From a virus (taxonomy: Duplodnaviria > Caudoviricetes): 64,000 bases of DNA. Each line of letters opens with the position of its first letter. Position 1 is the stretch's first letter. Shown piece by piece: positions 510 to 62,694 of the stretch. A program made the position numbers and the translations under genes. The notes beneath the pieces were generated by a model. The model saw only the letters and a list, made by a program, of their open reading frames with translations. It was not told the DNA's origin and ran no database searches. The stretch covers positions 32,001 through 96,000 of IMG/VR virus record IMGVR_UViG_3300010346_000241. The stretch is one strand, 5' to 3'.

Positions 510-560
510 ACTGGTGGTAGAGCTCGAACATCTGAGTAAACTACCACCAGTTTATTTTTA
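510..560 (+). terminator. intrinsic terminator with a late-promoter motif in its loop
   Basis: Stem ACTGGTGGTAG...CTACCACCAGT followed by TTATTTTT. The loop contains AACATCTGAGTA (527-538). Confidence 0.65.
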
Positions 561-579
561 CTAGAAAGGAGAATTGTAT

Positions 580-1875
580 ATGTCGCATAGATACACTCCT
601 GTACAGTTCCATAGGTATAAACAGGAACATATCCTGAATCACTACTGTACTGTAGCTCCACTATCTCACAATCATGCTATCTGTATAGAGTATGTGAAGA
701 AGTGGTTCCTCGAGAAGTTCCCTAAGGACTTCTTCTCTTACTTTTTTGTCGACGGAAGTAATGTCTTTGGTGAGACTATAAGACTTCCTAAGGACAAAGT
801 TATCGTTAAAGGAAGCGATGACACATGTACATGTACTATGTCTTGTCAGCTTGACGATACTTATGATCGTGCTATGATCGATACTAACCTCTTTGGTCTG
901 GAGATGTTTGTAAACACTACTCCTATAGACCGTTCATTCATCCAAGATCCAGTCAATCATCGTTACGTAATGATGAAGATGGAGATGGAACTCATGAACT
1001 TTACCTTCAGAATCAAGTGTCCTACCAGAGCAAAGCAGCTTGATCTGTTCAAGTTCATGAAACTCGCTTTCAGAATAGGTCTTTCGGAGACCAGAGATGC
1101 TACTAACGACTATCTTATCCCTTATAGTCTGATGCTGAGTGTGGCATCAGATGCTGGTTTTAAGATAGATTGCGAGAATGCCAGAATCAAGAACCCTATA
1201 GAGTTCCTTACATGGCTCAATCGCCATTCTTTTTTGCCGATTCTCTTCAGATTCAACAATATGACTGGTAGAGAAGACTACTATGTGCGTATGGATGACC
1301 TTCCTATCAGAGTAGGATTTGAGTCTATATCTAAGGATGACGGCAATAGAACAGGACATCTTCTTACAGACTTCGGCATAGAGATGAATATCAACGTTCG
1401 TTTCCCTGGTATGCAGCTTTATGTATACCATACTAAGACAGAACAGATCTATTCTACTCAGACTAAGTCTGCTTATGCTATAGACGGAGCTCTCATGATA
1501 GCATTCAAACAGGGCACACCTCCTCCAGATATGAATGAGAGGGGATGGCTCAAGTATATAGAATCTGATTATCAGGCTGATGCTCCAGGGCCATTCGAGA
1601 TTAACATGGGAGAGCTGTTTGAGGGTGAACTTCTCAAGTTTATCAACGAACACAAGGATCGTTTCATTTCTCCAGAGGTATTCATGGATATCAGAGTCTA
1701 TTGTGATGATGCATTTCTTGAGACTGAGATGAATTGGAAGACTATGATGCTCTCGGTAAAGGGTTATCCTCCTAAACTTATTACGAGTATAGTCATCTAC
1801 ATCGATACTCTCTACTTGAACGACCAACGTATCATCGATAAAGGCATTGACAAGTCAAGGACTTCCATTCAGTAA
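580..1875 (+). CDS. putative virion structural protein (possibly T4 gp15-like tail terminator/neck)
   Basis: ORF of about 431 aa; ATG at 580 is well spaced from AGGAG and preceded by a late-type promoter. The segment MNFTFRIKCPTRAKQLDLFKFMK loosely resembles the gp15-type strand-helix pattern. Confidence 0.4.
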   Translation: MSHRYTPVQFHRYKQEHILNHYCTVAPLSHNHAICIEYVKKWFLEKFPKDFFSYFFVDGSNVFGETIRLPKDKVIVKGSDDTCTCTMSCQLDDTYDRAMIDTNLFGLEMFVNTTPIDRSFIQDPVNHRYVMMKMEMELMNFTFRIKCPTRAKQLDLFKFMKLAFRIGLSETRDATNDYLIPYSLMLSVASDAGFKIDCENARIKNPIEFLTWLNRHSFLPILFRFNNMTGREDYYVRMDDLPIRVGFESISKDDGNRTGHLLTDFGIEMNINVRFPGMQLYVYHTKTEQIYSTQTKSAYAIDGALMIAFKQGTPPPDMNERGWLKYIESDYQADAPGPFEINMGELFEGELLKFINEHKDRFISPEVFMDIRVYCDDAFLETEMNWKTMMLSVKGYPPKLITSIVIYIDTLYLNDQRIIDKGIDKSRTSIQ

Positions 1876-1929
1876 GCAATAACAGGGCCCACAACCCTCT
1901 TATAATATAATTAAAGGAGGAATTCTAGC

Positions 1930-4900
1930 ATGACAAAGAATCTTGAGAGTGTCACTGTTGAAAAACGTGACGGTAAGGTAGTTCCCTTCAATAGGGTAAA
2001 TATCTCTGTCGCTGTTACCAAAGCAGTGAAAGCATCTCATCAATCATTCGACCCAACCAAAGACCCCATGTATAATGCTAAGAACAACGAAGTTGTTGAC
2101 GCTGTAATAGATGAGGTAGACACTTTCCTTAACCATGAACCTGGAAGGATACACGTAGAACGTATACAGGATCTTGTTGAACGGGTTCTTATCAAGAAAG
2201 GATATGCTGATACAGCAAAAGAGTATATCCTCTATCGTAAGAAGCGTGACGAGATCCGTAACACTCGTAACAAGACTGCTGAGTGTATGGAAGAGATCCT
2301 CGGTAAGAGCTCTGAAGATAGCAATCTTAAGCGTGATAATGCCAATGTAAACGGTGATACAGCTATGGGTACTATGCTTCAGATTGGAGCTAATGTATCT
2401 AAGGAGTATTATCTTGACAATCGTATCAATCGCACAGCAGCTACAGCTCATAGAGATGGTCATATACATATACATGACCTCGACTTCTATGACCTTACTG
2501 TTACTTGCTGCCAGATCGATGCTAAGAAGATCCTCGAGGGCGGTTTTAATACTGGTCATGGATATCTCAGAGAACCTGCTTCTATACTGTCAGCATCTGC
2601 ATTGGCTGCTATAGCTATACAGAGCGATCAGAACGACTGTCACGGCGGACAGAGCATTCCGAACCTCGACTACGGTCTCGCTAAGTATGTAGATAAGAGT
2701 TTTGCAAAGCATTTCAAGGATAACTTCAGCAAGCTCTTTGACTTCGCATTCTCGTACTACATAACTCCTGGAGGAGAAACACGAAAGAAGTTAGACGAGT
2801 TAATGCCCGATATGGAGAACTTCATTCTTGAAAGCCTCAGAGAACAGCTTAGCACAAAGATGACCCCTTTTACTCATAAAGCTATCTACGAGATAGCTAA
2901 GAAGCTTGAGGAGAATAACATTGTGTCTAGCGATGACGTCAATGTAGTATCCTATCTCGAGAAGATTATTCAGACTGCATTAGACAATTCGTTACGTGAA
3001 ACAGACAAAGAAACACATCAGGCTATGGAAGCATTCGTACACAATCTCAATACGATGCACAGCAGATGTGGCGCACAGGTAAAGAAAGTTGCCTAGTATA
3101 AGGGAAACCTTATACAGAGCTCGGGTAATATCGGTGAAGACTCGAGTATGATTCCATATATAATATCATGTATAGAGGAGGTGAAGATATGGACGATTCA
3201 ATCTTACGTATGATATATTTAGGAAACAAGATCAGTAGCAAAGAACTACAACAGATCACTGGATGTTCTAAAGCTCAACTTAGTCGAGTTATGAAGACTA
3301 TAACAAACAAGAGAAATATAATAGACGTCCACAACAGAAATACAGTAGAGAACTACTTCGAATGTATACAAACTGAGGAACAAGCATACTACTTAGGTTT
3401 CTTTATAGCAGACGGATGTATAAAGTACAATAATGGAAGAAAACCTGTAGCAACATTCACGTTACAAGACTCTGATAGATATATGCTTGAAAGGTTTTCA
3501 GAAGCTATCAACAATCCTTATAAACTTTCATGTGCTACAAAAGTACGTGATACTGGTTATACTAGTACATGGTACACAATGAGAATCTCTAGCCAAAAGA
3601 TAGTATCGAATTTGGAAGATATAGGTGCTGGGTATGGCAAGAGCTACAGAGAGATTCCTATACTTCCACCAAACTTAACCAGACATTTGGTTAGAGGATT
3701 GTTTGATGGTGACGGATCATTCTATTACAGAAGATCACATCCAGAAGACCCAAATAGTATTGCTATCAGAGGTTGTGTAGAGCTATTAGGATTTCCTGTT
3801 GTCATAGAAGACTTACAGATGATATTAAATGACATTGGTGTGTCGAAGTATTCATTACGGAAATCTGATACTGCTACTCAGTTATATGCCATAAGAATGG
3901 AGAGGAAAGATGACATAAAGTTATTCTACAACTACATGTATACTGACTCTCATATCTATTTGGAAAGAAAGAAGAAGAAGTTCGAAGACTTCTTCAATGG
4001 AATCATACCGAGTTAATACCGAGATAACTGATACCTCAACAAGTATCAGTATCGTAACGCGTAGTGGGTGAAACCTCAACACCGAGAGGAATATAATCCC
4101 ACCAAGAGTATCCGATACAATGTCTATAGGGCATTGCTACGGGAGTTGCGCCCCGTGGTCCTAACGTAATGACGAGGGTAGAAATGTACGCTGAGCTGGT
4201 CTGAATTGACAGACGTATCGATTCTTAGTAAATCGTATGAGGGTGACCTCCAGAAGTATAGGATAAAAAGCCTATACGATAACACAACTGACCTTTCTCT
4301 AGTGTAAACCTCGGTACCGATACTTCTCCTGCAGGAAGAATGGTTACCAAGAATCTTCTCAAGGCCATGAATGAAGGCCTTGGACACGGAGAAACAGCTA
4401 TCTTCCCGATCGTTATCTTCAAGGTAAAAGAGGGAATCAACTACAATAAGGAAGATCCTAACTACGACCTCTTCAAGCAGGCTTGTGAGGTTACATCACG
4501 TAGACTCTTCCCTAACTTCTCATTCATTGACGCTCCATTCAACAAACAGTACTATGTTGAGGGTCGTCCTGAAACAGAGATAGCTTACATGGGATCTGTT
4601 ACAGGAGACCATGAAGTATACTATCGTTACAACGGCAAAGAATACAAGCATACGTTCAAAAAGATGTATGAGAAGCTCTCTGCTCATTTCAAGATCGAGA
4701 CATTCGGAATCTCTAAATATATCGATGTCGACGGCGACGTTGATATCTATGATACATCCAGTGGAGGATTCGTTCCTTGTAGAAAGGTAATGGTTACTCC
4801 TAAGATGACTAACTGGGTTCGGATCAAACTTGCTAACGGAAGAATCATTACTGCTACAGATGACCATCCGCTTCCTGTACTGTCTAAAACAGAGGAAAAG

Positions 4901-6909
4901 ACATTCGTAAGAACACCAGTAGCAGATATCGAAATCGGCGATAAGATTGCTGTAGTGGGTCCTGCTAACGTTGTATTCGATTCTGAGTATTGGGATGGAT
5001 CAGACTTCATGACTACACTCAACTCTTCAGAAGTCGTAGAGTATTCAGTTCTTGATACGAAGGAAGATGGATATGATGTAGAGACTGCATCTGATAGATT
5101 CGATGTCTCTGGTATTGTATCACATAACTGCCGTACAAGAGTTATTGGTAATCACTATGATCCTAACAATGAGATTACTCATGGTAGAGGTAACCTCTCA
5201 TTCACCTCTATCAATCTCCCTAGACTCGCTATAGAGTCTGGCGGTTCGGAAGAGAAGTTCTTCAACGATCTTAGATACTATATGGAAGTTGCTAAGTCTC
5301 AGCTTCTTGAAAGATTTGAGATTCAGGCTAAGAGACATGTCTATAACTTCCCATTCCTTATGGGACAGGGAGTATGGATCGGCTCTGATAAACTCAAGTG
5401 GACAGATGAGGTGAGAGAAGTTATCAAGAACGGTACACTCTCTATCGGATTCATCGGTATTGCTGAAACTATGAAGTGTCTCTACGGCCACCATCATGGC
5501 GAAGGTGAGGAGTATGAACAGAAGGCTATCAATATCGTCAAGTTCATGCGTAATATAACTGACCAGATGGCTGAAGAAACTGGACTCAACTTCTCACTTC
5601 TTGCTACTCCTGCAGAAGGACTTTGTGGTAGATTCCTCAGAATCGACAGAAAGAAGTTCGGCGTTATCGAAGGAGTAACAGATAAGGAGTTCTATACTAA
5701 TTCATTCCACATTCCTGTAAACTTCAAGATCTCTGCATTCGATAAGATCAGGCTTGAAGCTCCTTTCCATGAGCTTACTAATGCTGGTCATATTACGTAT
5801 ATCGAGTTCGACGGAGACACATCAGAGAATATAGCTTCTATCGAAAAGGTAGTACGTTGTATGCATGATCAGGGAATCGGCTACGGTGCTATCAATCACC
5901 CTGTAGACAGAGACCCAGTATGCGGATATACTGGTATCATCGGCGATACTTGTCCATGCTGTGGACGTAAGGAATCAGAAGACCATATCAGATTCGAGAG
6001 AATCAGACGAATAACGGGTTAACCTACACGATAAGCCCTAAAACTAACACAAACCTATCATAGATAGGCTTTCCATGATTGGACTCAGAGTATGGGTCAG
6101 AAATCAAATAATGATTATGGAGGGATCAAGAGATGGATGTAGTTACAACCTACAATTCAAACCTTGAGTTTAGAAAGATACCATCATTACAGTTCCTATA
6201 TGAGGTCAACTCTAATGGAACTATCTTTAGGAATGTCAAGTCTAAGAAGCAACTTCGCATCAAGCTTGACTACCATCATTCAAAAGCTGGTTACTATTGT
6301 ACTTTTGTCAATATCAAGGGTCAATGTATAAGAGTCATGATACATTCTGTTGTAGCAGAGTGTTGGCTTGGACCAAGACCTGAAGGATATGAAGTAGATC
6401 ATCGAGATAGAAACAGTCATAACAATGACTATAGGAATCTCCGCTATGTAACTCATAGCGAACAGATGAAGAATAGAGTACTTGGAGATCATGTCATTGC
6501 AGCTGCTACAGCTAATTGTGCAGCTTACGTGAAAGATATCTCCATAAGATGTGTAGTGATAGATTCAAGAACTAATGACACATATCACTTTAGATCAGCT
6601 ACTCAAGCAGCTTACTTCATCGCATATGAGACTGGTAAGAGTCCAGAGCAAGTTAGAGGTAAGCTGAAACAAAGAAGAAGTCACATATACTTCTATGATA
6701 TAGTATATGTGAACAACAAGAACTTCTGGCCAGACAGTATCTTTCGAAATGCAGAGACTAGACGTGTTGGCTCTACGGAGCAAGGAATAGTCCACTTATA
6801 CGAACAAGATGACGAGTAAGTGTATCTTGTAGGTGATGTAGTCACATGGAATGACGCTAAGAGTGCTGAAGAAAGTATGAGACTTCCTCATAATGCTTCA
6901 GATAACTAA
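1930..6909 (+). CDS. nrdD: anaerobic (class III) ribonucleoside-triphosphate reductase; exons 1930-3080, 4291-6019, 6823-6909, plus an intein
   Basis: N-terminal ATP cone (VEKRDGKVVPFN), HIHDLDFY, TCCQID, QNDCHGGQS. Splicing restores HSRCGAQV-PFSS, YMG-CRTR and RRITG-YLVG. Also GNLSFTSINLPR, ATPAEGL, YTNSFH and a Zn-site region. Spliced length is 2967 nt (988 aa; 810 aa after intein removal). Confidence 0.96.
3081..4290 (+). mobile_element. group I intron 1 of nrdD
   Basis: The 5' exon ends in U (3080) and the intron ends in G (4290); removal joins GT|A (Val) in frame. P1: exon AGGT pairs with intron GCCT (U.G). P10: AGAAAG pairs with exon CTTTCT. Core-like segments ATATCGGTGAA / TAATACCGAG and GTAACGCGTAG / GTACGCTGA are present. 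Confidence 0.9.
3189..4016 (+). CDS. intron-encoded double-motif LAGLIDADG homing endonuclease with N-terminal HTH
   Basis: Motifs YYLGFFIADGCI and HLVRGLFDGDGSF; HTH-like ISSKELQQITGCSKAQLSRVM. RBS GGAGGTG precedes ATG 3189. Confidence 0.9.
   Translation: MDDSILRMIYLGNKISSKELQQITGCSKAQLSRVMKTITNKRNIIDVHNRNTVENYFECIQTEEQAYYLGFFIADGCIKYNNGRKPVATFTLQDSDRYMLERFSEAINNPYKLSCATKVRDTGYTSTWYTMRISSQKIVSNLEDIGAGYGKSYREIPILPPNLTRHLVRGLFDGDGSFYYRRSHPEDPNSIAIRGCVELLGFPVVIEDLQMILNDIGVSKYSLRKSDTATQLYAIRMERKDDIKLFYNYMYTDSHIYLERKKKKFEDFFNGIIPS
4595..5128 (+). mobile_element. mini-intein (178 aa, no endonuclease) in NrdD
   Basis: Starts SVTGD after YMG, has block B ITATDDHPL and block F GYDVET, and ends SHN followed by Cys. 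Removal restores YMG-CRTR. Confidence 0.92.
6020..6822 (+). mobile_element. group I intron 2 of nrdD
   Basis: The exon ends in GGU (6019) and the intron ends in G (6822). P1 GGGT/GCCC. P7-type GCAGAGACTAG (6751) with GAATAGTCC (about 6786). Removal gives RRITG-YLVGD...WNDAK. Confidence 0.9.
6133..6819 (+). CDS. intron-encoded HNH homing endonuclease (NUMOD4-HNH-NUMOD1-like)
   Basis: Motifs FRKIPSLQFLYEVNSNG, IHSVVAECW, VDHRDRNSHNNDYRNL and HFRSATQAA. Confidence 0.9.
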   Translation: MDVVTTYNSNLEFRKIPSLQFLYEVNSNGTIFRNVKSKKQLRIKLDYHHSKAGYYCTFVNIKGQCIRVMIHSVVAECWLGPRPEGYEVDHRDRNSHNNDYRNLRYVTHSEQMKNRVLGDHVIAAATANCAAYVKDISIRCVVIDSRTNDTYHFRSATQAAYFIAYETGKSPEQVRGKLKQRRSHIYFYDIVYVNNKNFWPDSIFRNAETRRVGSTEQGIVHLYEQDDE

Positions 6910-6975: not shown

Positions 6976-7047
6976 CTTTACAATCGCTCCCAACTCAATC
7001 CGTTCAGAGTCAACTTTATAATAAATTCAATACTAGAAGGAGGAATC

Positions 7048-10707: not shown

Positions 10708-10719
10708 AACAATATATTA
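10708..10719 (+). promoter_or_regulatory. late promoter motif AACA-N6-TA (capsid gene)
   Basis: AACAATATATTA in the intergenic leader; matches the AR9 late consensus. Confidence 0.75.
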
Positions 10720-10813: not shown

Positions 10814-12808
10814 ATGCCTATCTCAGGTACAAGAGAAGTTAGGACTGCTGGTTCTAACTATTCTAAGGACGCTTTAGCACCTCTTGCAAAAGCATACCTT
10901 GATATAACCAACTCAATACTTCATGAGAACGGTCTCTCAGTATATGAAGACACAACAAAGGTTCACATGAATACAATCACAGACAGCACAATTAAGGACT
11001 TCTTTGTCGAGAACTGCTTCGACAGAAATGATCCTATGTTCCGCGACGATCCCGAAGCTCAGGAAGACCAGACTCTGATGATGGAGGAGATGTACATCAA
11101 TGACAAGGAAGCTATCCTCGAGCACTCAGCAGGCGGTCAGCACAACCCCGTAATCGGTATGACATTCCCTATCCATAAGAATATCATGCTGAACAATATC
11201 TTCGACAAGGGAGCAATCCCGAAGTTCGTTGCTACTTCACCTAAGTTCACAGTTTCTATGGAGACCAGATGGCTCATCGACCCTGTAACAGGTGAGAAGA
11301 TCGATATGTGGAAGGATCAGTGGAAGATGACTGATGCTATCCTCAAGGCTGCTCCTCTCAAGAGCATGTACATGGCTCTTCCTGAGGATGGTACAACAGA
11401 CGTACTTGCTACACTGTTCGGCGCTACAGATCCTGAGGATCACCTTTCAATCGAGTCATTCGTAAGCGGTATCGTTGGCAGCAGAGCTGTATTCCCTGGT
11501 CAGAGCATCCAGCTCGTAACCAGCACAACAATCGGCAGTGTTACTACATATCAGATCGAAGACTACACAAACGATACAGCTAACGCTGAGGTTATCGCTC
11601 AGGGTGTTAAACTTGCTGGTTCTACACTCGTTGGTACAGATGTTGTCGGTGCTATCTTCCCATTCGAGGGTAAGTTCGCTCCTGCATACGGCGAGTATGA
11701 CAGACAGATCGTAGAGAGCTTCTCAGTTCCTATGGTTACAGCTGTTGCTGCAGGTACACTTGCTGACACATGGAAGCTCACAGCTAACGGTGTTCAGTAT
11801 GATAACTGCACAAGCGAAGACAGCATTCCTGCTGCGGCAAGAACAAAGGGCTTCCTCTCAGGCTTCTCTAAGGATGATCGCTTCGGCCTTTCATCTTCAA
11901 ACGCTGCTGCAGGCGGTATCATTCTTACTTCAAGAATCGATACATCTTCTGCTAAGCTCAGAACTGCTTCAGTATCTTGGGATGTTCGTACAGACATCAT
12001 TGAGATTCCTAACGCTATCCCGATCAACGTTACAATCTCTCCTGAAGAGGTTAAGGATATCTCTGCTCTGTATCAGATCAACCAGCTGACAAAAGTTCTC
12101 TCACTTATCAAGACATCCCTCAACAACTACAAGGATGATCTTATCCGTAGAGCACTTGACGAAGACTTCGTTAAACTGCCGAACTCACAGAAGATCGGTC
12201 GTTACTTCGACTTTGCTCCTACAACTAACTACGCTCTCGATCCTCTCGAGTGGCGCTACAAGATGTTCATGGATGCTATGGATACTCATGTAACACAGCT
12301 TCTCCATGTTCTCAATGATCCTAACATGACAATCAACGTAATCGGCCGTGATGATCTCATCAGAAAGATTACTCCTACTGAGTACACATATCAGACACCT
12401 ACAAACATCGGCCCTGTTGAGCTCGACTTTGTAAAGACTGTTGTTACATCAGACAGAAGAACATACCAGTTCATCAGCTCTGATAAGCTCCGTGATACAA
12501 ACAACCTGATCGTACTTCTCTGCCCAAGAAACACAGATCGTTTCATCTACAGAATCTACGATTACCAGATGTATCTCAGCAACGAGATCAGAAACTACAA
12601 TAATCCTTCACTCCCTGCAGTACATGCATTCGAGCGTTGGAAGTTCGAGAAGTATCAGCCTGTACAGGGACGTATCGGCATACTCAATCCTACTGGCCTC
12701 CGCAACTATGGTCAGAACTACGCATTCAACAATGATCCTGTTGGACGTGGTGATGGTAAGGGCGTTGCTAGCGTTGGTAAGAATGACTTCGATATCGACG
12801 CTCGCTAA
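10814..12808 (+). CDS. major capsid protein (phiKZ/AR9-like)
   Basis: 664 aa with high-expression codon usage, its own promoter and terminator, and an acidic propeptide ending near ILE-HS. Sequence pattern recognised as jumbo-phage capsid type; head-module context. Confidence 0.75.
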   Translation: MPISGTREVRTAGSNYSKDALAPLAKAYLDITNSILHENGLSVYEDTTKVHMNTITDSTIKDFFVENCFDRNDPMFRDDPEAQEDQTLMMEEMYINDKEAILEHSAGGQHNPVIGMTFPIHKNIMLNNIFDKGAIPKFVATSPKFTVSMETRWLIDPVTGEKIDMWKDQWKMTDAILKAAPLKSMYMALPEDGTTDVLATLFGATDPEDHLSIESFVSGIVGSRAVFPGQSIQLVTSTTIGSVTTYQIEDYTNDTANAEVIAQGVKLAGSTLVGTDVVGAIFPFEGKFAPAYGEYDRQIVESFSVPMVTAVAAGTLADTWKLTANGVQYDNCTSEDSIPAAARTKGFLSGFSKDDRFGLSSSNAAAGGIILTSRIDTSSAKLRTASVSWDVRTDIIEIPNAIPINVTISPEEVKDISALYQINQLTKVLSLIKTSLNNYKDDLIRRALDEDFVKLPNSQKIGRYFDFAPTTNYALDPLEWRYKMFMDAMDTHVTQLLHVLNDPNMTINVIGRDDLIRKITPTEYTYQTPTNIGPVELDFVKTVVTSDRRTYQFISSDKLRDTNNLIVLLCPRNTDRFIYRIYDYQMYLSNEIRNYNNPSLPAVHAFERWKFEKYQPVQGRIGILNPTGLRNYGQNYAFNNDPVGRGDGKGVASVGKNDFDIDAR

Positions 12809-14629: not shown

Positions 14630-15340
14630 CTATATAATATCCTTTGTCTTTCCTGCGAAAGTTCTACCCTTCCTTACCACATTCTTCTGTTGTTTGAGTT
14701 CCTGTATTCTATCCATTGGTGCAGATGTAGCTCCCTCCAATGGTCCTATAGCAGCAAGCATAGAGTTTGCATACATAGCGCCATTGAATGAGTTCATCAT
14801 ATTGGCTAAGTATATAAACTCTAAGTCTGTTATATCACTCATACATTCTGTATTGCCTACTATCAAAGTTGCTCCAGCCTGTTGATATCCTGTATGGTTT
14901 ATGATAGTAGGAAGTATCTTAAAGATCTTGTTCTTTGGATATCTGTCCGAAACAACAGGAAGAGTGCTGTTCATTCTCATGCAATCGTTCTCTACAACGA
15001 ATACATTTTGTCCTTGCGCAAACAGACAATTAGATGCTATCTTCAGTGAGTTAACGAACTGATAGTGTCTGTCATTAGGAATGAATATGGAGTCATCCAT
15101 ATTCGCTCTATAGTTCTTAAGCTCTAATGTCATAAAGTAATCTATCTTACGCTTAACAAGTACGTTAGCGTTACTAGGTCTTGTTTTGGTTCTATATTCT
15201 CCCCAATAGTGAATTGTACGTTCTTCATACATCTCAGTCTCTGGGAGAACCCAACTTAAGTTGAGATTGAAGTTAAGTTTGATAGGACCAGACTCAAAGA
15301 TAGTATCGACCATACGATACATCTGGTTGTTATTGGTCAT
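14630..15340 (-). CDS. hypothetical protein
   Basis: 236-aa ORF with GGGGGTG RBS; TACA-N6-TA motif upstream (15355-15366). Confidence 0.6.
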   Translation of the reverse strand: MTNNNQMYRMVDTIFESGPIKLNFNLNLSWVLPETEMYEERTIHYWGEYRTKTRPSNANVLVKRKIDYFMTLELKNYRANMDDSIFIPNDRHYQFVNSLKIASNCLFAQGQNVFVVENDCMRMNSTLPVVSDRYPKNKIFKILPTIINHTGYQQAGATLIVGNTECMSDITDLEFIYLANMMNSFNGAMYANSMLAAIGPLEGATSAPMDRIQELKQQKNVVRKGRTFAGKTKDII

Positions 15341-15381
15341 TCTAACACCCCCTGTATTATGATGTATGACCTAGAGTAAAA

Positions 15382-18439: not shown

Positions 18440-18454
18440 TATAATATACATTCA
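18440..18454 (-). promoter_or_regulatory. early-type promoter motif TGAATGTATATTATA
   Basis: Related motifs occur at 22268-22282(-), 25125-25140(-), 48069-48083(+) and 62695-62711(-), always intergenic and upstream of non-structural genes. Confidence 0.6.
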
Positions 18455-22267: not shown

Positions 22268-22282
22268 CCTATAATATACAAC
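22268..22282 (-). promoter_or_regulatory. early-type promoter motif upstream of RNAP subunit
   Basis: Minus strand GTTGTATATTATAGG. Confidence 0.6.
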
Positions 22283-22774: not shown

Positions 22775-22866
22775 GTTTGGATTCCTCCTTGTTTAGTATA
22801 TCTGAGTGGTGTAATTGCCACTACTGATTATATAATAGTTCTGTCAGAACGACTAAAAAGAAGGAA

Positions 22867-25054: not shown

Positions 25055-25159
25055 AGTTTTCCTCCTTGTTCATAATCGTCCCAAACACGTACGATTATTT
25101 GATTATTTAATGGTTGAGTGTTCTCTAATAGTATACAATCGTACCAATTTGGAGGGAGG

Positions 25160-25171
25160 AACATCTTAGTA
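25160..25171 (+). promoter_or_regulatory. late promoter motif AACA-N6-TA (tape-measure gene)
   Basis: AACATCTTAGTA. Confidence 0.75.
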
Positions 25172-38494: not shown

Positions 38495-38506
38495 AACATT
38501 TCTATA
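38495..38506 (+). promoter_or_regulatory. late promoter motif AACA-N6-TA
   Basis: AACATTTCTATA. Confidence 0.7.
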
Positions 38507-40640: not shown

Positions 40641-40652
40641 AACAATAGAGTA
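40641..40652 (+). promoter_or_regulatory. late promoter motif AACA-N6-TA
   Basis: AACAATAGAGTA. Confidence 0.7.
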
Positions 40653-42710: not shown

Positions 42711-42752
42711 TAGTTTTACCTCCTTCTAGGTATAGTTTTATTATAAAGTTCA

Positions 42753-48034: not shown

Positions 48035-48046
48035 TATAGAGATGTT
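48035..48046 (-). promoter_or_regulatory. late promoter motif AACA-N6-TA
   Basis: Minus strand AACATCTCTATA. Confidence 0.7.
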
Positions 48047-48167
48047 CCACCCTCCAATTTTGTTCTCAGTTGTATAGTATAGGTGTGTCTATGTACAAAT
48101 AATATGATGAATCTCCACGTTCAAACATAGGTCAATCGCATTCAACTAACGAACGGAGGTTTTCATC

Positions 48168-48500: not shown

Positions 48501-48513
48501 TTCTTTCGATGAT

Positions 48514-48550
48514 AAGAAACAGATGAAGGCGTCTCATCTGTTTCTTTTTT
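48514..48550 (+). terminator. intrinsic terminator
   Basis: AAGAAACAGATGA-AGGCGTC-TCATCTGTTTCTT followed by TTTT. Confidence 0.75.
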
Positions 48551-48573
48551 GGTCTGATACGCTAAACCAATGA

Positions 48574-48585
48574 AACATCACTATA
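48574..48585 (+). promoter_or_regulatory. late promoter motif AACA-N6-TA
   Basis: AACATCACTATA. Confidence 0.7.
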
Positions 48586-48612
48586 AAAATACTAGGCAAG
48601 GAGGTAATATAC

Positions 48613-49902: not shown

Positions 49903-49917
49903 GGAGGTGTAATCCAT

Positions 49918-51981: not shown

Positions 51982-51996
51982 GCGACTGGGCAGACC

Positions 51997-52008
51997 AACA
52001 TATTAGTA
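51997..52008 (+). promoter_or_regulatory. late promoter motif AACA-N6-TA
   Basis: AACATATTAGTA. Confidence 0.72.
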
Positions 52009-52093
52009 AATCTTACGGTCTTATCATTAAGACCATAGGGAACTACTAATATACCATTAGGTAAAGAATACTACACAAAGGAGGAAACCATTT

Positions 52094-53347
52094 ATGGGTA
52101 TCTATTCAAATACTAGATACGATAATTTAGGCGACTACAACGTAGATGTAGCTGCTAACGAGTCATACAACTGTGTAACTGGTTGTGCAATGGCTCTTAT
52201 CGAAGGTTATCAGAATGACTTCGCACTCTTTGAGTCAGCTATCCACAGCGACATGGCTGAGATCGCTGCTGTAAACGAGGGTGTTGAGGTTATCAACGAA
52301 GGTGCCAAGGAAGTATGGAACAAGCTCAAGGAGATCTTCACCAAGCTTCTCGCTAAGATCAAGGGTATCTTCAAAGCATTCATCGCAAGAATCGGCGGCG
52401 TGTTCGCTGATAGCGCTAATCTCTACAAGAAGTACAGTCCTGTTATCTCAAAGAACAGCAACTGGAAGAGCTTCAAAGCAAAGGTAAGACCTTTCAAGGG
52501 CGATGGTTCGAACATCGTCGAGAAGATCAGCTCACTTGGTGAATATAAGTTCAAGTCAAACTATGCTATGAGCGGAATAGCTAATGTTCCTGGAATCGGC
52601 GGTTATGATAAACTCACTGATAAGGACAACGACATTGATCAGGATGATCTTTGCTCGGCAGTTTGCAATGCTTCACTCAACTCTGAGCTTGCTAACAATA
52701 TCTCAAAGCTTGATGACATAAACAAGGAGTTCACAGATCTTCTCTTCGATGATGAAGAGACTAAGGATGAGTGGACTACTGGCGATATTCTTCATTCTTA
52801 CATCGGCGGTCTTCTCAAAGACGCAACCAAGAATGAGACTACTATCAAGAAGTACAACGCAAATATGGAGACAACTATCGAGAGAATCATTAAGCAGATC
52901 AACAAGGAAGCTGAGAATGTTACTAAGGCTCTCTCAAACGTTAATCTCCAGAACGGCAAGACACCTAACAGCTATGCTCAGGGTTCTGTAGGAGTGTCAG
53001 ATGCCGATTCTACTGGTAAGACAAGAGGATCCGCTGCTAAGAAAAATGACACTATTGGTAAAAACGGTAATACCGTTGACTGGAATAAGAAAGAAAGCCT
53101 CGAGAAACTCGAGCGTCTTGCTGGTTTCTGGCAGCGTTATGCTAACATGGAGCAGGCTGTAATCAACAAGCTTACTGCAGCTCGTCTCGGTGCTTACAAG
53201 TTCGCTATCACACAGGCTCGTCGTGTGTTCTCTTCTGCAGCTGCTTATGCTTCTGTAGATCACAAGAACGAGTCTTATGACTACTACACAGCAATCGGAG
53301 AGGCTGTAGAGTACGATACTCTGTCAGATCTCCAGGCTGTATGCTAA
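52094..53347 (+). CDS. internal head protein paralog 1
   Basis: MGIYS start; VINE-GAKEVWNKLKEIFTKLLAKIKGIF amphipathic motif shared with the next three genes; high-expression codons. Confidence 0.65.
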   Translation: MGIYSNTRYDNLGDYNVDVAANESYNCVTGCAMALIEGYQNDFALFESAIHSDMAEIAAVNEGVEVINEGAKEVWNKLKEIFTKLLAKIKGIFKAFIARIGGVFADSANLYKKYSPVISKNSNWKSFKAKVRPFKGDGSNIVEKISSLGEYKFKSNYAMSGIANVPGIGGYDKLTDKDNDIDQDDLCSAVCNASLNSELANNISKLDDINKEFTDLLFDDEETKDEWTTGDILHSYIGGLLKDATKNETTIKKYNANMETTIERIIKQINKEAENVTKALSNVNLQNGKTPNSYAQGSVGVSDADSTGKTRGSAAKKNDTIGKNGNTVDWNKKESLEKLERLAGFWQRYANMEQAVINKLTAARLGAYKFAITQARRVFSSAAAYASVDHKNESYDYYTAIGEAVEYDTLSDLQAVC

Positions 53348-53366
53348 GGAAAGGAGGACACACATT

Positions 53367-54599
53367 ATGGGAATCTATTCTAACTTCAACACTTCATCTA
53401 TAGATGATGGTAGCTTCACACCTAGAGATCTCTTCGCAGAGTGCGGTGAGACTGCTACATATGAAGAGCTTGCACTTGCTATGGTAGCTGAGAGCGAGCA
53501 GAATTACATCTCTATCATGAAGGCTATTGCTATCAATGAAGTAAACTACTTCGCTCAGAACGGCGAGGAGATCGTTTACGAGGCAGGCGGTGTGTCTGGC
53601 ATCTTCAACAAGATCAAGGAGTTCTTCAAGAAGCTCATTGAAAAGGTTCGTCAGATTCTTCACTCATTCATCGCTAAGCTTTCTTCTTTCGCAAGCAGCG
53701 ACTCTTCTTTCGTACAGAAGTACCAGAAGGAGTTCTCTGAAAAGTGGAACAAGATAAAGAGCGACTATGAGTTCAGCGGATATAAGTTCACTGTAAAGAC
53801 AGACGCTGCTCTTGATAGAGCAAACATCAAGAGCGGTGCTGTTGAGGCAGTTGCTGCATGCTGCGATAACTCTGCTGAGGCTGCTGTAAAGGCTGCTGTT
53901 GGCGTAACAAGCCTTAACGATATTCTCAATGTCAGCGGCGATCTTAAGAAGATCCTTGACTCTATAAGAGATAACAAGGACGATATCCAGGAAGCTATGA
54001 GAGGTAAAGTAGCTAATGTAGTTACTACTAGCTTCTCATCTGGTACAGCTACAGCTTCTGGTTCTAAGTTATCTGCTTCAGAGTTCTCAAAGGAGCTCTT
54101 TGAGAAATTCCGTGGCGGTGAAGAGAACAAGCAGAGCCTCGAGCTTAAGAAGGAGTTCTCAGTTGCCGACATCGTTGGTGACGTAAAGAACACTGATAAG
54201 TTCAAGAAGGCTGCTCAGAAGTTCACTGATGCTGTTGTTAAGGGCCTCAACGACGAAATCAAGGTTCTTGATAAGCTCGAGAAGGATATCGTTAAGATTC
54301 AGACTGGCGATGATATTAAGGCTAAGAGCGGCAACGACAAGACAGCTGCTTCTAATAGCGCTTCAAATGTTCTCGGTCTCGTATCAGAGGCAAATGGCCT
54401 TATCAAGGATTACTCTTCTTACTATGTACAGGCTAACGGTATCTACCTCCAGGCTATAGCTGACAGAAATCGTCAGGCTAAGGCTATCATGGTTAAGGTT
54501 ATCGGCAGTACAAAGAAGATGACAGAATCTTACGACGAGGATGAACACGAGGGAGTTGCTGAGTCAGTTAACTACTTCGACAAGATCGTTCTCAAGTAA
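53367..54599 (+). CDS. internal head protein paralog 2
   Basis: MGIYS start; IVYE-AGGVSGIFNKIKEFFKKLIEKV; YEFSGYKF. Confidence 0.65.
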   Translation: MGIYSNFNTSSIDDGSFTPRDLFAECGETATYEELALAMVAESEQNYISIMKAIAINEVNYFAQNGEEIVYEAGGVSGIFNKIKEFFKKLIEKVRQILHSFIAKLSSFASSDSSFVQKYQKEFSEKWNKIKSDYEFSGYKFTVKTDAALDRANIKSGAVEAVAACCDNSAEAAVKAAVGVTSLNDILNVSGDLKKILDSIRDNKDDIQEAMRGKVANVVTTSFSSGTATASGSKLSASEFSKELFEKFRGGEENKQSLELKKEFSVADIVGDVKNTDKFKKAAQKFTDAVVKGLNDEIKVLDKLEKDIVKIQTGDDIKAKSGNDKTAASNSASNVLGLVSEANGLIKDYSSYYVQANGIYLQAIADRNRQAKAIMVKVIGSTKKMTESYDEDEHEGVAESVNYFDKIVLK

Positions 54600-54642
54600 T
54601 CGGCTCTGATCTACATCACAATTATACACAAGCAATATAGAG

Positions 54643-54676
54643 TCGGGAGGGCCAATAGACCCTCCCGATTTTCTTT
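54643..54676 (+). terminator. intrinsic terminator
   Basis: TCGGGAGGG...CCCTCCCGA followed by TTTTCTTT, then a late motif at 54682-54693. Confidence 0.7.
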
Positions 54677-54717
54677 GTCTTAACTTTATAGTAATACATA
54701 CGAAAGGAGAGAAGTCT

Positions 54718-55950
54718 ATGTCACTTTTCAAAGTTGACTTTGCTGCTCTGTCCAGTGTTCCCAATAGATCCCGTTCAGAGGCTTCTGGAGACACTACTAT
54801 TCACGAGCATGCATTCTCAAGTGCTTTAGCTATAGACAACCTGGCTACTGCAGAAGCAGAAGCTTCTTACGACTATATGTCTGAGTGTTATGCATTCCTC
54901 TCAGGCTATAACCGTTCATACTTCGATGCTTCTAAGCAGCTTTACAAAACTATCATGGAAAGCTGTGACTCACCTGAAGTGATTCATGAAGGCTTTGGTG
55001 ATTTCTTTGGTAAGGTCAAAGAGATCATCAAGAAGTTCCTTGCTTGGATCAAGAAGATCTTCAACAAGTTCATTGCTAAGATGAACAGTATGTTCAAGGC
55101 TGAAGGATATCTTAAGAAGAACAAGAATGAGTTCTCCAAGTTCAAAACTGAAGATGAGTTCGAGTTCGAAGGATATAAGTTCACCAACCTCTACGATGGT
55201 GGTAATGTCCCAGTAATCACTACTTTGGGTCTTGATATGGATAACACCAACAATACTCTTAAAGATGCTTTCGGTAGTGGTACACTCAACTATGATGTAC
55301 TCAAAAGCAAGTATGATGCTTTTGATGATACTAAGGAAGATTTCTTTGATGCTTTCAGAGGTAAGGTTCTCGGCGACAATACAGACATTCCCGCAAGTCA
55401 GTTCGAAGAGGAGTGCTTCCTCAAGTTCAGAGATGACTCTAAGGATAAGAGTAAGTTCACTATCACTTCATCTGAAGTAAGTGCGGCTTATACGAGATTC
55501 GATGGTTATGAGAAGCTCAAGAAGTCTGTCGAGAAGACAAGGAATGATATCGACAAGGAGTATGGTGCTCTCGAGAGATACTTCGAGAAGTCATATAAAC
55601 TGTCTAAGGATTCATTCAAGATCACAGATTACAGTGGTTCTCATGCTTCATATGTCGATGCCCAGAAGACACATCTTGGTATGGATGGATATGACGATGA
55701 GAAAAGGTATGCAGATACTCTTGCAAATGGAAATCCTGGTACTAAGACTAAGGCTACTGCTGCTGAACAGAAGGCACTTATCGAATCGTTCCTTAGAGCT
55801 CGTGCTGCTCAGGTAAACCAGATGAGTAATATCCACGGTATTGCATTCTCTGCTAAGCTGACTGCTGCTAAGGATTGCTTCAATCAGGATAAGGCTATTC
55901 TGTACAAGGCCCTCTCAAAGATTAAGGGCCATAAAGCAGATACTATATAA
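54718..55950 (+). CDS. internal head protein paralog 3
   Basis: IHE-GFGDFFGKVKEIIKKFLAWIKKIF; FEFEGYKF. Confidence 0.65.
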   Translation: MSLFKVDFAALSSVPNRSRSEASGDTTIHEHAFSSALAIDNLATAEAEASYDYMSECYAFLSGYNRSYFDASKQLYKTIMESCDSPEVIHEGFGDFFGKVKEIIKKFLAWIKKIFNKFIAKMNSMFKAEGYLKKNKNEFSKFKTEDEFEFEGYKFTNLYDGGNVPVITTLGLDMDNTNNTLKDAFGSGTLNYDVLKSKYDAFDDTKEDFFDAFRGKVLGDNTDIPASQFEEECFLKFRDDSKDKSKFTITSSEVSAAYTRFDGYEKLKKSVEKTRNDIDKEYGALERYFEKSYKLSKDSFKITDYSGSHASYVDAQKTHLGMDGYDDEKRYADTLANGNPGTKTKATAAEQKALIESFLRARAAQVNQMSNIHGIAFSAKLTAAKDCFNQDKAILYKALSKIKGHKADTI

Positions 55951-55967
55951 GAAGGGAGGATAAGACT

Positions 55968-57431
55968 ATGTACGAAAGTAGATATACTGATATAATAGCT
56001 CATGAGTACTATCTCTTAGATCTTGAGCTTCAGCAGGCTGACATGACAAGATACGTTAACGAGTGTGTAATCCTCTCTGGTACTGATAAGAGAAAGGCTA
56101 TCGAGGAGATGGCTATCTTCAACGAAGGAGCACTCGGCGACAAGTTCAAGAAGGTATGGGCAAGAATCAAGTCCTTCTTCGCTAAGATCTATCAGAAGTT
56201 CCTTGAGAGTCTTCAGGCTTGGGCGAGTGATAATATTACTTATCTTAAGCAGTATGGTAATATCATTCTCGAGAAGAAGTGTAAGATCGCTAATGCTAAG
56301 ATGCAGAATCACTTCAACGGAATGAAGCTTTATGAGCAAAAGCTTCTGCCCAATGTAAAAACTATCTTCACAACAATACCAGACTTCACTGAGTTAGAGA
56401 AGATATCTAACACTCTTGCTAATATCACTAAAGAGACCGACAAAGTTGCTAAGGGACAGGAAGCTGTAGATGCATATACATTACAACAGCAGAATGTCGT
56501 AGCAAAAGCTCTTACAGGAAACGATAACGATTCGGATCTTATAGATTCTAACGATACAGCTGGCTTCGGCGGTCGTATTCGTAACTGGCTGAATGGAGGA
56601 GAAACTGTAGAAGACTTCTCTGGTTCAGATCTTGAAGAGCATATGGAGACTATGTACAACTTCCTCTACAGATACGACGCTACAGTAGAAGGTCTTAAGA
56701 AGATTAAAGACGCATTTGACCAGGGTATGACTAACATCGAAACTTCATATAAGAAAGGTTTCGATGAGATGAAGAAGAAGGTTAAGGACGATCTCAACAA
56801 TGGCGATAATGCTAAAATAGCTAAGTCCAAAGCTGCAGTGGATGCCGACAATGTCAAAAAGAGTGATACTCTTGGTCAAGAGCTCAAAAATGTTCAAGAT
56901 GACGCTAAGAAGGCCTCTGCAGAACTCAAGAGACAGCCTCAGAACTCAGCGTACTCATATGTGTACGGTAGAGTCATATCGGAAGCTGAGACTACGATGA
57001 GTACTGGATCTAACAGTACAACTAGCACAGTATCTGGAGGAGGTGCTGGTAAAGATACTAAGAATCTTGACACTGCTAATAAGTCTGATAGACAGAGCAG
57101 TTCAGAGACTTCTAAGACAGTGAAAGCTGATGCTACTACTGGAAAGACTGTAGGAACTGGTGCAGGAGCAAGTGCTGCAGTTAATATTGCTGGACAGACT
57201 GGCGTAAAGAATGAGGATCTTGAAAATTACGAAACTAACGCTTTATCTATGGTGAGAGCTTGGGGTAATGCAAGATCTATCTGTATGGGTGCAGCACTCA
57301 ACATGCTTTCTGATACCCGTAAAGATTACATGGACATCATTAGAGCTCATGTAAGATCATGGGTAGGACAGACTGCTGGTCCTGATCAGAATGTCGAAGC
57401 CAAACCTAGTGGTAATGTTAATAGAGCATAA
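55968..57431 (+). CDS. internal head protein paralog 4
   Basis: IFNE-GALGDKFKKVWARIKSFFAKI. Confidence 0.6.
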   Translation: MYESRYTDIIAHEYYLLDLELQQADMTRYVNECVILSGTDKRKAIEEMAIFNEGALGDKFKKVWARIKSFFAKIYQKFLESLQAWASDNITYLKQYGNIILEKKCKIANAKMQNHFNGMKLYEQKLLPNVKTIFTTIPDFTELEKISNTLANITKETDKVAKGQEAVDAYTLQQQNVVAKALTGNDNDSDLIDSNDTAGFGGRIRNWLNGGETVEDFSGSDLEEHMETMYNFLYRYDATVEGLKKIKDAFDQGMTNIETSYKKGFDEMKKKVKDDLNNGDNAKIAKSKAAVDADNVKKSDTLGQELKNVQDDAKKASAELKRQPQNSAYSYVYGRVISEAETTMSTGSNSTTSTVSGGGAGKDTKNLDTANKSDRQSSSETSKTVKADATTGKTVGTGAGASAAVNIAGQTGVKNEDLENYETNALSMVRAWGNARSICMGAALNMLSDTRKDYMDIIRAHVRSWVGQTAGPDQNVEAKPSGNVNRA

Positions 57432-57436
57432 ACTTT

Positions 57437-57461
57437 TCGGAGAGGGAAGTTCCCTCTCCGA
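57437..57461. terminator. hairpin between convergent genes
   Basis: TCGGAGAGGGA-AGT-TCCCTCTCCGA. Confidence 0.7.
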
Positions 57462-57465
57462 TTCT

Positions 57466-58656
57466 TTATATCTTCTTGAACAACAGTATCGTTGTCATTA
57501 CGAAGTACTCATTCTGCTTTACGAAGAACTGTTTCACTGCACTCAGAAGGTATCTTCCACTATACTCTTCATGGTCTTCATCCATAGTGATAATGTACTC
57601 CTTGTTCATAGTGAAGATGCTGGCATCAAGGTCGTTCTTAGTGATACTGAGGAAGACATTGTTCAGCTCGTAATCTGCAGTGATATTGTTGATAGCATTC
57701 TGGTCATTATTACTCAGATTCACTATCTTGTTCATCATAGTGGTCACGTTAGTATCGTTACCCTCTATCAACTTCTCCTTCACATTACCGCTGCTATCTA
57801 TGGTTGTGATCTTGTTCACCATCTTGTTAGTCACGTTATTTTTTGTGAAGTTGATGTTTGCTAATGGTACATCCATGATATACTTACCATTCCTTGCATC
57901 TACTACCATACCAGACTCAGAGTCTTCATCAGGTATAATATTAGTCACATTGATCTCAACCGTAAAGATGTTCTGGTTCTTTGTCTGTATAGGCTTTCCC
58001 TTACTAGACACTATGTATGTCATGTCGAAGTCTATGAAGAACCTATATCCAGTATCATAGAAAACTGACAGGTTGTTGTTGAGGAATGCTATGTACTGAG
58101 CTATGCTATTTGTAGGAGGTATGATAATCTGGTCATACTTATTATCATAGTCTACTGGCTCTAGTACAGTGTTTCCCACATAATCGGTTATCTGAAGTAT
58201 CAGTGAGTTTGTAGTGGCATTCTTGAAGATACCATTGATAACCTTGCGGTTGTTGTTCACTGCATCCTGCTGAATCAGCCACATAGTAACCTCTTTATAC
58301 TTCTCTCTTGTATGCTCTTGTCCATTGCCATAATCTATCTCTGCAGTTTGAGAGATGTCATCTCCTAAGAAGTAGATGAAACGATCATGGAAGTACTTCT
58401 TAGTGATATTGTCGTTTTGGTTAGAGGCATCATATCTGAAGATACCCAACTCTACGATGTTCTCATTAGTATTCTGTATCATCATGTCCAGTATATCTCT
58501 TTCGATGTTGCAGTTCACTGCTATGACAGGCATGTTGTTACTATCGAAAGTTCTATCTATACCTACATATTGTATCTGCTGTGGGTCTATAGCTATCTCA
58601 TATCCGAAGTGGATGTAGCTAAGAGTCACTTTGTATCTATACGATTCAAGTGCCAT
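57466..58656 (-). CDS. putative baseplate hub-like virion protein
   Basis: ATG 58656 after GAAAGGAG; TACA-N6-TA motif at 58677-58688. Beta-rich, with a C-terminal YSGRYLLSAVKQFF resembling gp27/hub family ends. Confidence 0.5.
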   Translation of the reverse strand: MALESYRYKVTLSYIHFGYEIAIDPQQIQYVGIDRTFDSNNMPVIAVNCNIERDILDMMIQNTNENIVELGIFRYDASNQNDNITKKYFHDRFIYFLGDDISQTAEIDYGNGQEHTREKYKEVTMWLIQQDAVNNNRKVINGIFKNATTNSLILQITDYVGNTVLEPVDYDNKYDQIIIPPTNSIAQYIAFLNNNLSVFYDTGYRFFIDFDMTYIVSSKGKPIQTKNQNIFTVEINVTNIIPDEDSESGMVVDARNGKYIMDVPLANINFTKNNVTNKMVNKITTIDSSGNVKEKLIEGNDTNVTTMMNKIVNLSNNDQNAINNITADYELNNVFLSITKNDLDASIFTMNKEYIITMDEDHEEYSGRYLLSAVKQFFVKQNEYFVMTTILLFKKI

Positions 58657-58740
58657 GAGATCACTCCTTTCATACTTATTAAGATGTACACGGATAAGAA
58701 AAAACAAAGCGTGAGAGGGCACAAGAGTGCCGAGACAGGA

Positions 58741-61554: not shown

Positions 61555-61579
61555 AGTGGCGGAGTTAAACCCCGCCACT
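61555..61579 (-). terminator. intrinsic terminator
   Basis: AGTGGCGGAG-TTAAA-CCCCGCCACT with an A-run on its left. Confidence 0.6.
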
Positions 61580-61600
61580 TTGTTGTTGCCGCTAGAAAGA

Positions 61601-62623
61601 TCAGATGAACTTTCTCTGCATCGGGATTCCAGTAACGATGACTCCCTGGTTCATGATTGAGTTCACATTTCTCGCTGCAGGATTGTTCTGAAGGATAGCC
61701 TTCATTCTAATAACGTTGATGTTCTGGTAGTCGCCGTTATCGTAAAGGTCAGTACGGAGTTCGCCCTGCCACTCTCTGATGAGCTGTACAGTCCAGCCAT
61801 CATACTTGGTCTTACGAACCCAGATTCCTTCTTTGTTCTTGTGCCAGTCCTCAATTATTGAGTCTTCGCCGTGCTTGAGGATCTCCTCATACAGCTTCAG
61901 ACCATCGAGTGTAACGAGCACTTCATAGATCTTCTGGTTAATGTTATAAGGGTGATTTACCACGTTTACAGTAGTAATCAGATCCCAGTTAACCTGGCCT
62001 TTGTTGTTCTTGATCTGCTTAACGGTGATAGAGCCGTTCTGCGGATTTACAATGCCGACGCAGTCAGGAACATAGTCTTTGATAACTTCCTTGAGGTTAT
62101 CTGTAATGAATACCTCGTTATTCTTAGCAGCCTTGCCGAACTTCATAGCATTGTAGATGCTGAGAGCATCTGATGCTGATGACTCCTTAACGGAACCAAG
62201 CTTAGACTGTACTGCTCTGAACTTAGTGTCATCGTCGTTTTTCTGTGTGTAGATGAAACGAGCAGTTACACTGAAAGTTCCCTGCTGATTGTTCGAATTG
62301 ACGTTGTCATGCCAGTCGCATGCACAACCCTCAAAGTCGAAGAAGATTCCTCTAAGGAACTCCGATGTTTCCTTAAGGACCATGTTGCTGTTCACAGGTA
62401 CAGCATACTGTACGGGAACAGGCTTATAGTCACCCTTCCACTTGATCTTGCCGATCTTCTTTTCTGCGGGTGTATCCTTTGAAGTAGATGATGTATCTAC
62501 TGTTGTAGCTTCGTCCGAACCTGTTGATGCAGCTGTGGGATCTGCTACGGGTGTGTCACTGTCGTCGATATGATCCTTCAGGATCTCATCGAGTACTGTG
62601 CTTTCCATTGACTTAATGCTCAT
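61601..62623 (-). CDS. hypothetical protein, probably highly expressed
   Basis: 340 aa, AAAGGAGG RBS. Both early-type (62695-62711) and late-type (62651-62662) motifs lie upstream; own terminator. Confidence 0.65.
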   Translation of the reverse strand: MSIKSMESTVLDEILKDHIDDSDTPVADPTAASTGSDEATTVDTSSTSKDTPAEKKIGKIKWKGDYKPVPVQYAVPVNSNMVLKETSEFLRGIFFDFEGCACDWHDNVNSNNQQGTFSVTARFIYTQKNDDDTKFRAVQSKLGSVKESSASDALSIYNAMKFGKAAKNNEVFITDNLKEVIKDYVPDCVGIVNPQNGSITVKQIKNNKGQVNWDLITTVNVVNHPYNINQKIYEVLVTLDGLKLYEEILKHGEDSIIEDWHKNKEGIWVRKTKYDGWTVQLIREWQGELRTDLYDNGDYQNINVIRMKAILQNNPAARNVNSIMNQGVIVTGIPMQRKFI

Positions 62624-62694
62624 ATCAAGTCCTCCTTTAGTTATTTTTATTATAATGGAGTTGTCCCTGAAGTAAGAAGCTACCCAAGGACACT

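Follow-up and report, generated by a model that had tools for sequence, protein, structure and literature searches.

The window analysed here is a stretch of 64,000 nucleotides, bases 32001-96000 of the 229,448-bp IMG/VR virus record IMGVR_UViG_3300010346_000241 (40.8% GC; CheckV rating complete), in which a short word, AACA-N6-TA, recurs ahead of virion and other genes. We consider it about 70% probable that this word is the late promoter of a 229-kb jumbo phage distantly related to phage AR9, read by the phage's own five-subunit non-virion RNA polymerase (nvRNAP), most probably on thymine DNA. In AR9 and PBS1 the late promoters have the form 5'-A(-11)ACA-N6-T-A/G(+1) and are read by a holoenzyme of nvRNAP with gp226 (PMC5312081, PMC5449584, PMC9209446), five subunits in all (PMC5449584, PMC9209446). 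Positions below are those of the window unless they are given as genome positions, which count from the first base of the record.

A preliminary description of the window had listed such words and their variants, and every one of its coordinates indeed holds the motif type named there, on the strand named. Their plain number is not above chance (36 matches to AACA-N6-TA in the window against 43.2 +/- 6.4 expected), so the test has to concern placement. Over the whole genome, with our own model based on open reading frames (ORFs; 200 genes, 92% of the genome covered), intergenic DNA upstream of genes in the sense orientation contains 49 matches in 18.3 kb, that is 2.68/kb, compared to 0.18/kb in other intergenic DNA, 0.32/kb in coding sequence on the sense strand and 0.16/kb on the antisense strand (0.24/kb for everything outside sense-upstream DNA). 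The enrichment in intergenic DNA and on the coding strand that the preliminary description anticipated is thus borne out. Control patterns with N5 or N7 spacing, or scrambled, have no sense-upstream enrichment in the whole genome, while AR9 itself, used as a positive control in the identical pipeline, gives 2.58/kb sense-upstream and 0.42/kb elsewhere. The longer pattern AACAT-N5-TAA is placed still more strictly, with 32 of 37 genome matches sense-upstream, and the distance from the first A of the motif to the start codon is mostly 30-42 nt. An unbiased comparison of 7-mers between upstream DNA and the rest returned words of the ribosome-binding site (RBS), then AT-only words of the early motif and then AACATCT, which is the top upstream 7-mer once the first two classes are excluded. 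Among the genes in the window that follow the motif are three with a virion annotation (38533, 46763 and 48613), and the capsid region follows it as well. The earlier statement that all the listed sites are intergenic, on the coding strand and shortly upstream of an RBS needs some qualification, as the sites at 51997 and 527 lie 97 nt and 53 nt upstream, and those at 10708 and 40641 are weak matches.

Inside genes the motif is avoided. There are 66 sense matches, compared to 99.2 +/- 8.6 in synonymous-codon shuffles (0 of 200 shuffles were as low), and 34 antisense matches compared to 45.1 +/- 6.2, while in this single-genome test the N5 and N7 patterns are not depleted; AR9 has a milder avoidance. 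When the same test was pooled over 35 relatives the depletion was strong at N6 (265 vs 360; 123 vs 254), but the sense-strand N7 control was also low, and so we rely on the single-genome test instead. Terminator-like sites are in excess (18 against 8.3 +/- 2.9 expected) and several late motifs stand directly after terminator-like hairpins. Two pairs of places in the genome (1522 and 2658; 100428 and 135810) contain near-identical promoter-plus-leader cassettes before different genes; the ~40 nt shared within each pair take in the late motif with its flanking bases and the RBS.

The extended consensus is AACAT(C/T)nn(A/T)(G/A)TAA. To define what each core position tolerates we scored the genome by weight matrix, ignoring one core position at a time, and counted strong sites (>=12 bits) upstream of genes and elsewhere. 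Positions 2, 3, 11 and 12 turned out to be invariant (A only, C only, T only and A only, respectively). At position 4, A is found at 33 upstream sites and 3 elsewhere, C at 6 and 0, T at 10 and 6, and G at 2 and 2. In AR9, by contrast, AACC, AACT and AACG have no upstream enrichment (1.0x, 1.0x and 0.7x), which agrees with the earlier proposal that the fourth position is more relaxed here. Such relaxation is in keeping with the AR9 structure, in which the base at -8 is partly disordered and forms no more than two hydrogen bonds (PMC9209446). At position 1 there is A at 33 upstream sites and 3 elsewhere and T at 6 and 3, and since 6 of the 9 strong T-first sites are sense-upstream, the TACA variants of the preliminary description are moderately supported. 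The positions outside the core (T5, R10 and A13) hold ~2.4 bits of information here, compared to ~1.0 in AR9.

The putative reader of the motif is encoded in full, as all five AR9 nvRNAP subunits have orthologues in the genome (Table 1). Four of them, those of gp105, gp089, gp270 and gp154, were matched at E values from 1e-32 to 3e-56. The fifth, gp226, for which a search had been suggested, escaped BLAST. A tblastn search of the genome with AR9 gp226 gave no match, and the homologue was found only by a PHROG profile (phrog_25005, E 4.9e-20). Full-length alignment of the AR9-clade profile with that of the gp226 proteins of the phage's own clade in hhalign (99.87%, E 1.4e-31, 444 columns) is accompanied by agreement in fold: for the AlphaFold (AF2) model of the homologue (pLDDT 80.5) the top Foldseek matches are 7S01_A (1.2e-15) and 7UM0_A (4.5e-13), both AR9 gp226, followed in third place by phiKZ gp68 (8QUE_B). 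The gene order gp226-g227-GroEL is also the same as in AR9. In beta-N, the -10 pocket retains R363 and K375, whereas in the 2.1bis-helix segment of gp226 six proteins from the clade with deoxyuridine (dU) DNA have SD(V/Q)VIWxY and the phage has TNKDLWDK. Relative to AR9, Asp274 stands in place of Val206, with Ile207 replaced by Leu and Tyr210 by Lys, while Trp208 is kept, in the same register in MAFFT and hhalign. Orthologues of the AR9 virion RNA polymerase (RNAP) subunits g145 and g189 are encoded as well.

Together with the known AR9 system these observations suggest the following scheme. The injected virion RNAP would read early promoters of the type TGTATA(T/C)TAT-N6-G, which stand before genes for the beta-prime C and gp226-like subunits of nvRNAP, among others; early-type promoters near the AR9 consensus (TATATTAT-N6-G; PMC5312081) are indeed found at these genes. 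The five-subunit nvRNAP made in this way would then initiate late transcription at the last A of the motif, ~25 nt upstream of the start codons of late genes, those for virion proteins among them. Its four split beta/beta-prime subunits and the gp226 homologue may, like their AR9 counterparts, recognise the element from -11 to -8 on the template strand, in single-stranded form. The DNA read would most probably be thymine DNA; a flavin-dependent thymidylate synthase (ThyX) is encoded intact. The placement of the motif, its avoidance inside genes and its conservation in relatives are observed, as are the five subunit genes and the homology and fold of gp226, while we infer the start position, the template-strand reading and the temporal order.

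Is the promoter then also uracil-reading, as the title of the preliminary description suggests? The AR9 promoter is inactive when thymine replaces uracil at -11 or -10. The C5 methyl would clash with gp226 Val206, a residue reported to be absolutely conserved in dU phages, and the V206G mutation relieves the clash (PMC9209446). The same promoter and polymerase might work here on dU DNA like that of AR9/PBS1, with the polymerase needing template-strand dU at -11 and -10. In favour of this, the core consensus is the same as in AR9, R363 and K375 of beta-N are unchanged, the genome lacks a trimeric dUTPase, and the closest cultured nvRNAP/gp226 relatives (AR9/PBS1, BpSp, LPJP1, the S6 group and phiR1-37) have known or presumed dU DNA (PMC7598289, PMC9209446). 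Nevertheless, we consider dU DNA improbable in this phage. It encodes ThyX (genome 100484-101854, minus strand, 4.5 kb past the window end; 136.7 bits), whose conserved motifs, RHR...S among them, are intact in an alignment with the solved ThyX 3GE9, while among five phages with known or presumed dU DNA (AR9, BpSp, LPJP1, S6 and phiR1-37) neither ThyX (0/5) nor ThyA (0/5) is present. Searches of the genome found no ThyA, trimeric dUTPase or dCMP deaminase (PF00383), and tblastn with AR9 Ugi, g221 and the nucleotidase g151 gave no match; for Ugi, a short and rapidly evolving protein, this negative says little. Asp and Lys stand here in place of Val206 and Tyr210, and relatives without a thymidylate synthase, two of the three complete ones among them, carry dUTPase. 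A phage that makes thymidylate and is without the uracil-selecting valine probably reads its promoter on thymine DNA, and the uracil-reading property is therefore probably not applicable here. The ThyX itself is a 456-aa protein with a long N-terminal extension or insertion and a Pfam Thy1 match in two pieces, an architecture that recurs in most relatives. We dropped an assignment of the neighbouring gene (genome 101854-102921) as a P-loop dNMP or thymidylate kinase, as Pfam gives only a sub-threshold AAA_23 match.

Two further explanations would do without nvRNAP or without a DNA promoter, and we regard both as very unlikely. If the motif were a promoter of the host polymerase, with a -10-like TATAAT/TAnTAA box and an upstream element recognised through a host or phage sigma factor, the ~1/3 of sites that end in TATAA(T), like a -10 hexamer, would be accounted for. 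There is, however, no -35-like conservation upstream of the AACA word (~0.2 bits at -5 to 0), many sites read GAGTAA, TAGTAA or ATGTAA without the final T of a -10 box, and sigma70-type sites (-35/-10 hexamers with 16-18 nt spacing) are not enriched, at 44 against 50.7 +/- 6.4 in shuffles. The strict A2, C3, T11 and A12 at fixed N6 spacing are exactly those of AR9, and the genome encodes a complete nvRNAP with a gp226 homologue. The fixed distance to the RBS and the restriction to the sense strand would, on the other hand, suit an RNA-level signal at the 5' end of late mRNA, either a processing site or a translation leader. Against this stand the frequent position directly after an intrinsic terminator hairpin, which marks the start of a new unit, the avoidance also on the antisense strand of genes, and the fact that in AR9 the identical word is an experimentally mapped transcription start site (TSS) and an in vitro promoter (PMC5312081, PMC5449584). 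The five subunit genes, the enrichment of the motif, its avoidance inside genes and the lack of enrichment of sigma70-type sites all favour the phage's own, sigma70-independent late programme proposed in the preliminary description.

The gp226-like protein has homologues in 81 clusters of a large protein collection and at 127 IMG/VR loci. In the 80 relatives' loci from IMG/VR that we scanned, AACA-N6-TA occurs at 2.01/kb in sense-upstream DNA and 0.30/kb elsewhere, with flat controls. Among the 47 relatives of at least 150 kb, 34 have ThyX and 7 more have ThyA (41/47), and for those at least 90% complete the proportion with either enzyme is 36/39; two of the three complete exceptions have dUTPase and dCMP deaminase instead. 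A 249.6-kb relative rated complete (G015, locus L050) lacks ThyX, ThyA, dUTPase and dCMP deaminase altogether and is the only member of the clade that we saw as a candidate for DNA of another chemistry. The AR9-type promoter and enzyme thus appear to be common to a large clade whose nucleotide metabolism, as predicted from its genes, says thymine. That this uncultivated clade of AR9-related jumbo phages (genomes ~200-340 kb, apparently no phage nucleus) uses AR9-type template-strand promoter recognition on thymine DNA seems to us somewhat more probable than the opposite. The position equivalent to Val206 is occupied in at least 69 relatives by I, T, V, D, P, G, S, K and others, with Trp208 invariant, and does not track the presence of ThyX; Val is found in seven ThyX-positive relatives, which rules this residue out as a marker of uracil versus thymine within the clade.

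Several points weigh against the proposed late promoter or, more specifically, against its being read on thymine DNA. With neither dUTPase nor dCMP deaminase found in the genome, it is not apparent where ThyX would obtain its dUMP, and a ThyX gene is no chemical proof of thymine in virion DNA, which we deduce from gene content. Asp has a C-beta, so the replacement of Val206 would by itself be no proof that thymine fits the pocket, and in AR9 the discrimination at -11 comes from the packing of the DNA backbone and not from a side chain (PMC9209446). Among cultured relatives, those with gp226 homologues all have known or presumed dU DNA. The gene model is home-made and individual distances from motif to start codon may be off. 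Finally, in assembled contigs of metatranscriptomes holding the phage, contig ends did not align with the predicted starts. One contig piece from run X2 stops at 52008, the start predicted from the promoter at 51997, but it runs into unrelated letters and adapter and is not counted as evidence.

The sites in the window and the genes for the polymerase subunits are collected in Table 1.

Table 1. Predicted promoter sites in the window and genes for nvRNAP subunits in the genome. Scores are weight-matrix bits.
Feature	Position	Strand	Context	Score
Late promoter AACA	527..538	+	53 nt before gene 580-1875	15.8
Late promoter variant AACC	1893..1904	+	37 nt before nrdD exon 1 (1930-3096; Pfam NRDD)	11.9
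Late promoter variant AACT	7012..7023	+	36 nt before RBS-supported start 7048	14.3
Weak AACA match	10708..10719	+	106 nt before major capsid gene 10814-12808 (phrog_20655)	9.1
TACA variant	15355..15366	-	26 nt before gene 14630-15340	
Early-type promoter (TGTATATTAT-N6-G)	18440..18448	-	before gene 17511-18377; AR9 early consensus from PMC5312081	
Early-type promoter	22270..22278	-	before nvRNAP beta-prime C gene	
Late promoter variant AACT	22829..22840	-	66 nt before gene 22328-22774	12.5
Late promoter variant AACC	25104..25115	-	61 nt before DNA polymerase B gene 22898-25054	13.4
Early-like word	25127-25135		beside AACC late variant 25104..25115 of DNA polymerase B gene	
Late promoter, best match in the window	25160..25171	+	36 nt before 4415-aa ORF	17.6
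Late promoter	38495..38506	+	38 nt before virion protein gene; after terminator hairpin 38454-38477	15.3
Weak AACA match	40641..40652	+	before RusA-like gene	9.8
Late promoter variant AACT	42739..42750	-	40 nt before gene 41781-42710	15.4
Late promoter	48035..48046	-	39 nt before virion protein gene 46763-48007	15.8
Late promoter	48574..48585	+	39 nt before virion protein gene 48613-49902; after terminator 48514-48546	15.1
Late promoter AACA	51997..52008	+	97 nt before gene 52094-53347	13.8
Late promoter variant AACT	54682..54693	+	36 nt before gene 54718-55950; after terminator 54639-54672	14.6
TACA variant	58677..58688	-	32 nt before RBS-supported start 58656	
Late promoter variant AACT	62651..62662	-	39 nt before gene 61601-62623	12.5
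Early-type word	62697-62705		with late variant 62651..62662 makes 61601-62623 a dual-promoter gene	
Beta-N, AR9 gp105 orthologue	genome 121426-123231	-		
Beta-C, AR9 gp089 orthologue	genome 127546-129774	-		
Beta-prime-N, AR9 gp270 orthologue	genome 184051-185604	+		
Beta-prime-C, AR9 gp154 orthologue	genome 52065-54209 (window 20065-22209)	-	E 1e-32; polB-g154-helicase synteny	
gp226 homologue	genome 209296-210975	-	phrog_25005, hhalign, fold, synteny	

In the region 40641-40690 the weak AACA site is followed directly by an 11-bp perfect inverted repeat, which would place a hairpin at the extreme 5' end of any transcript starting there. The best-scoring late promoter of the window is followed by a single ORF of 4415 aa (25196-38443), whose sole AR9 match is a stretch of 240 residues. 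The anaerobic ribonucleotide reductase gene nrdD is split over 1930-6022, with an N-terminal part (1930-3096) that contains an ATP-cone and positions 1-157 of the NRDD profile, a C-terminal part (4340-6022) that covers profile positions 253-541, and a LAGLIDADG endonuclease ORF (3189-4016) between them; the C-terminal part also contains a weak signal for intein splicing, and the split is probably due to an intron or intein insertion.

PHROG and Pfam matches, which include the major head protein, several virion proteins, a split family-B DNA polymerase, an SF2 helicase, RusA, the split NrdD and an RNAP beta-prime-like protein, identify the source of the window as an uncultured jumbo phage with a predicted multisubunit RNAP of its own. 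A megablast search with 12 kb of sequence matched none of 50,697 phage records. By tblastn the nearest cultured relatives of the RNAP beta-prime-like subunit are PBS1/AR9 (33% identity), followed by BpSp, phiR1-37, the Staphylococcus S6 group and Listeria LPJP1. Matches to AR9 were found for only 43 of the 200 proteins, with identities of 23-37%, but the genes of the window run in an order that parallels AR9 g205-g220. Three studies of activated sludge and wastewater have metatranscriptome assemblies with sequence near-identical to 48000-57900 (56-93% of sampled words), which suggests wastewater or sludge as the habitat of the phage.

According to the literature, no RNAP other than that of AR9 is known to read its -10 element on the template strand and to require uracil there, and the uracil requirement is presented as a way for jumbo phages without a nucleus to avoid transcribing host DNA (PMC7598289, PMC13282480); our search of the literature found no description of AR9-type promoters on thymine DNA. 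If the phage and its relatives do use the AR9-type promoter and enzyme on thymine DNA, template-strand reading is separable from dependence on uracil, and the latter would be a specialised trait of the AR9/PBS1 branch and not inherent in this type of polymerase. The gating residue would already have been widely sampled in nature, with the clade supplying natural thymine-accepting variants of the gp226 pocket. One would then also have to ask how a ~12-bit promoter remains specific to the phage when there is no uracil mark, and the way in which specificity is kept would become testable, with T5/R10/A13, motif avoidance inside genes and other factors as candidates. In practical terms, the motif offers a reliable annotation of late transcription units, including non-coding RNAs, across a metagenomic clade.

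The phage shares with AR9/PBS1 the core word, the N6 spacing, the sense-upstream density of the motif (2.7/kb here and 2.6/kb in AR9), the genes of the five-subunit enzyme, the gp226-g227-GroEL synteny and the early promoter type TATATTAT-N6-G. It also has genes with both promoter types (e.g. 61601-62623), as in the continuously expressed class of AR9. It differs in its GC content (41% compared to 28% in AR9), in accepting C and T at position 4 but A only, and no G, at position 12, in the extra conserved T5, R10 and A13, and in having ThyX, Asp and Lys in place of gp226 Val206 and Tyr210, and neither Ugi nor dCMP deaminase detected. The AR9 gp226 V206G mutant holoenzyme is similar in that the change affects the residue gating C5 of the -10 pyrimidine, and this mutation alone lets the enzyme use thymine promoters (PMC9209446). 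The residue here is Asp and not Gly, however, and would represent a natural state in a clade where the position appears to vary freely. With phiKZ and its nvRNAP-gp68 (PMC7598289; PDB 8QUE) the phage would share the life of a jumbo phage with thymine DNA, a split beta/beta-prime polymerase and a sigma-like fifth subunit of the same fold, whereas phiKZ has the late promoter word TATG, forms a nucleus and is much more distantly related in sequence.

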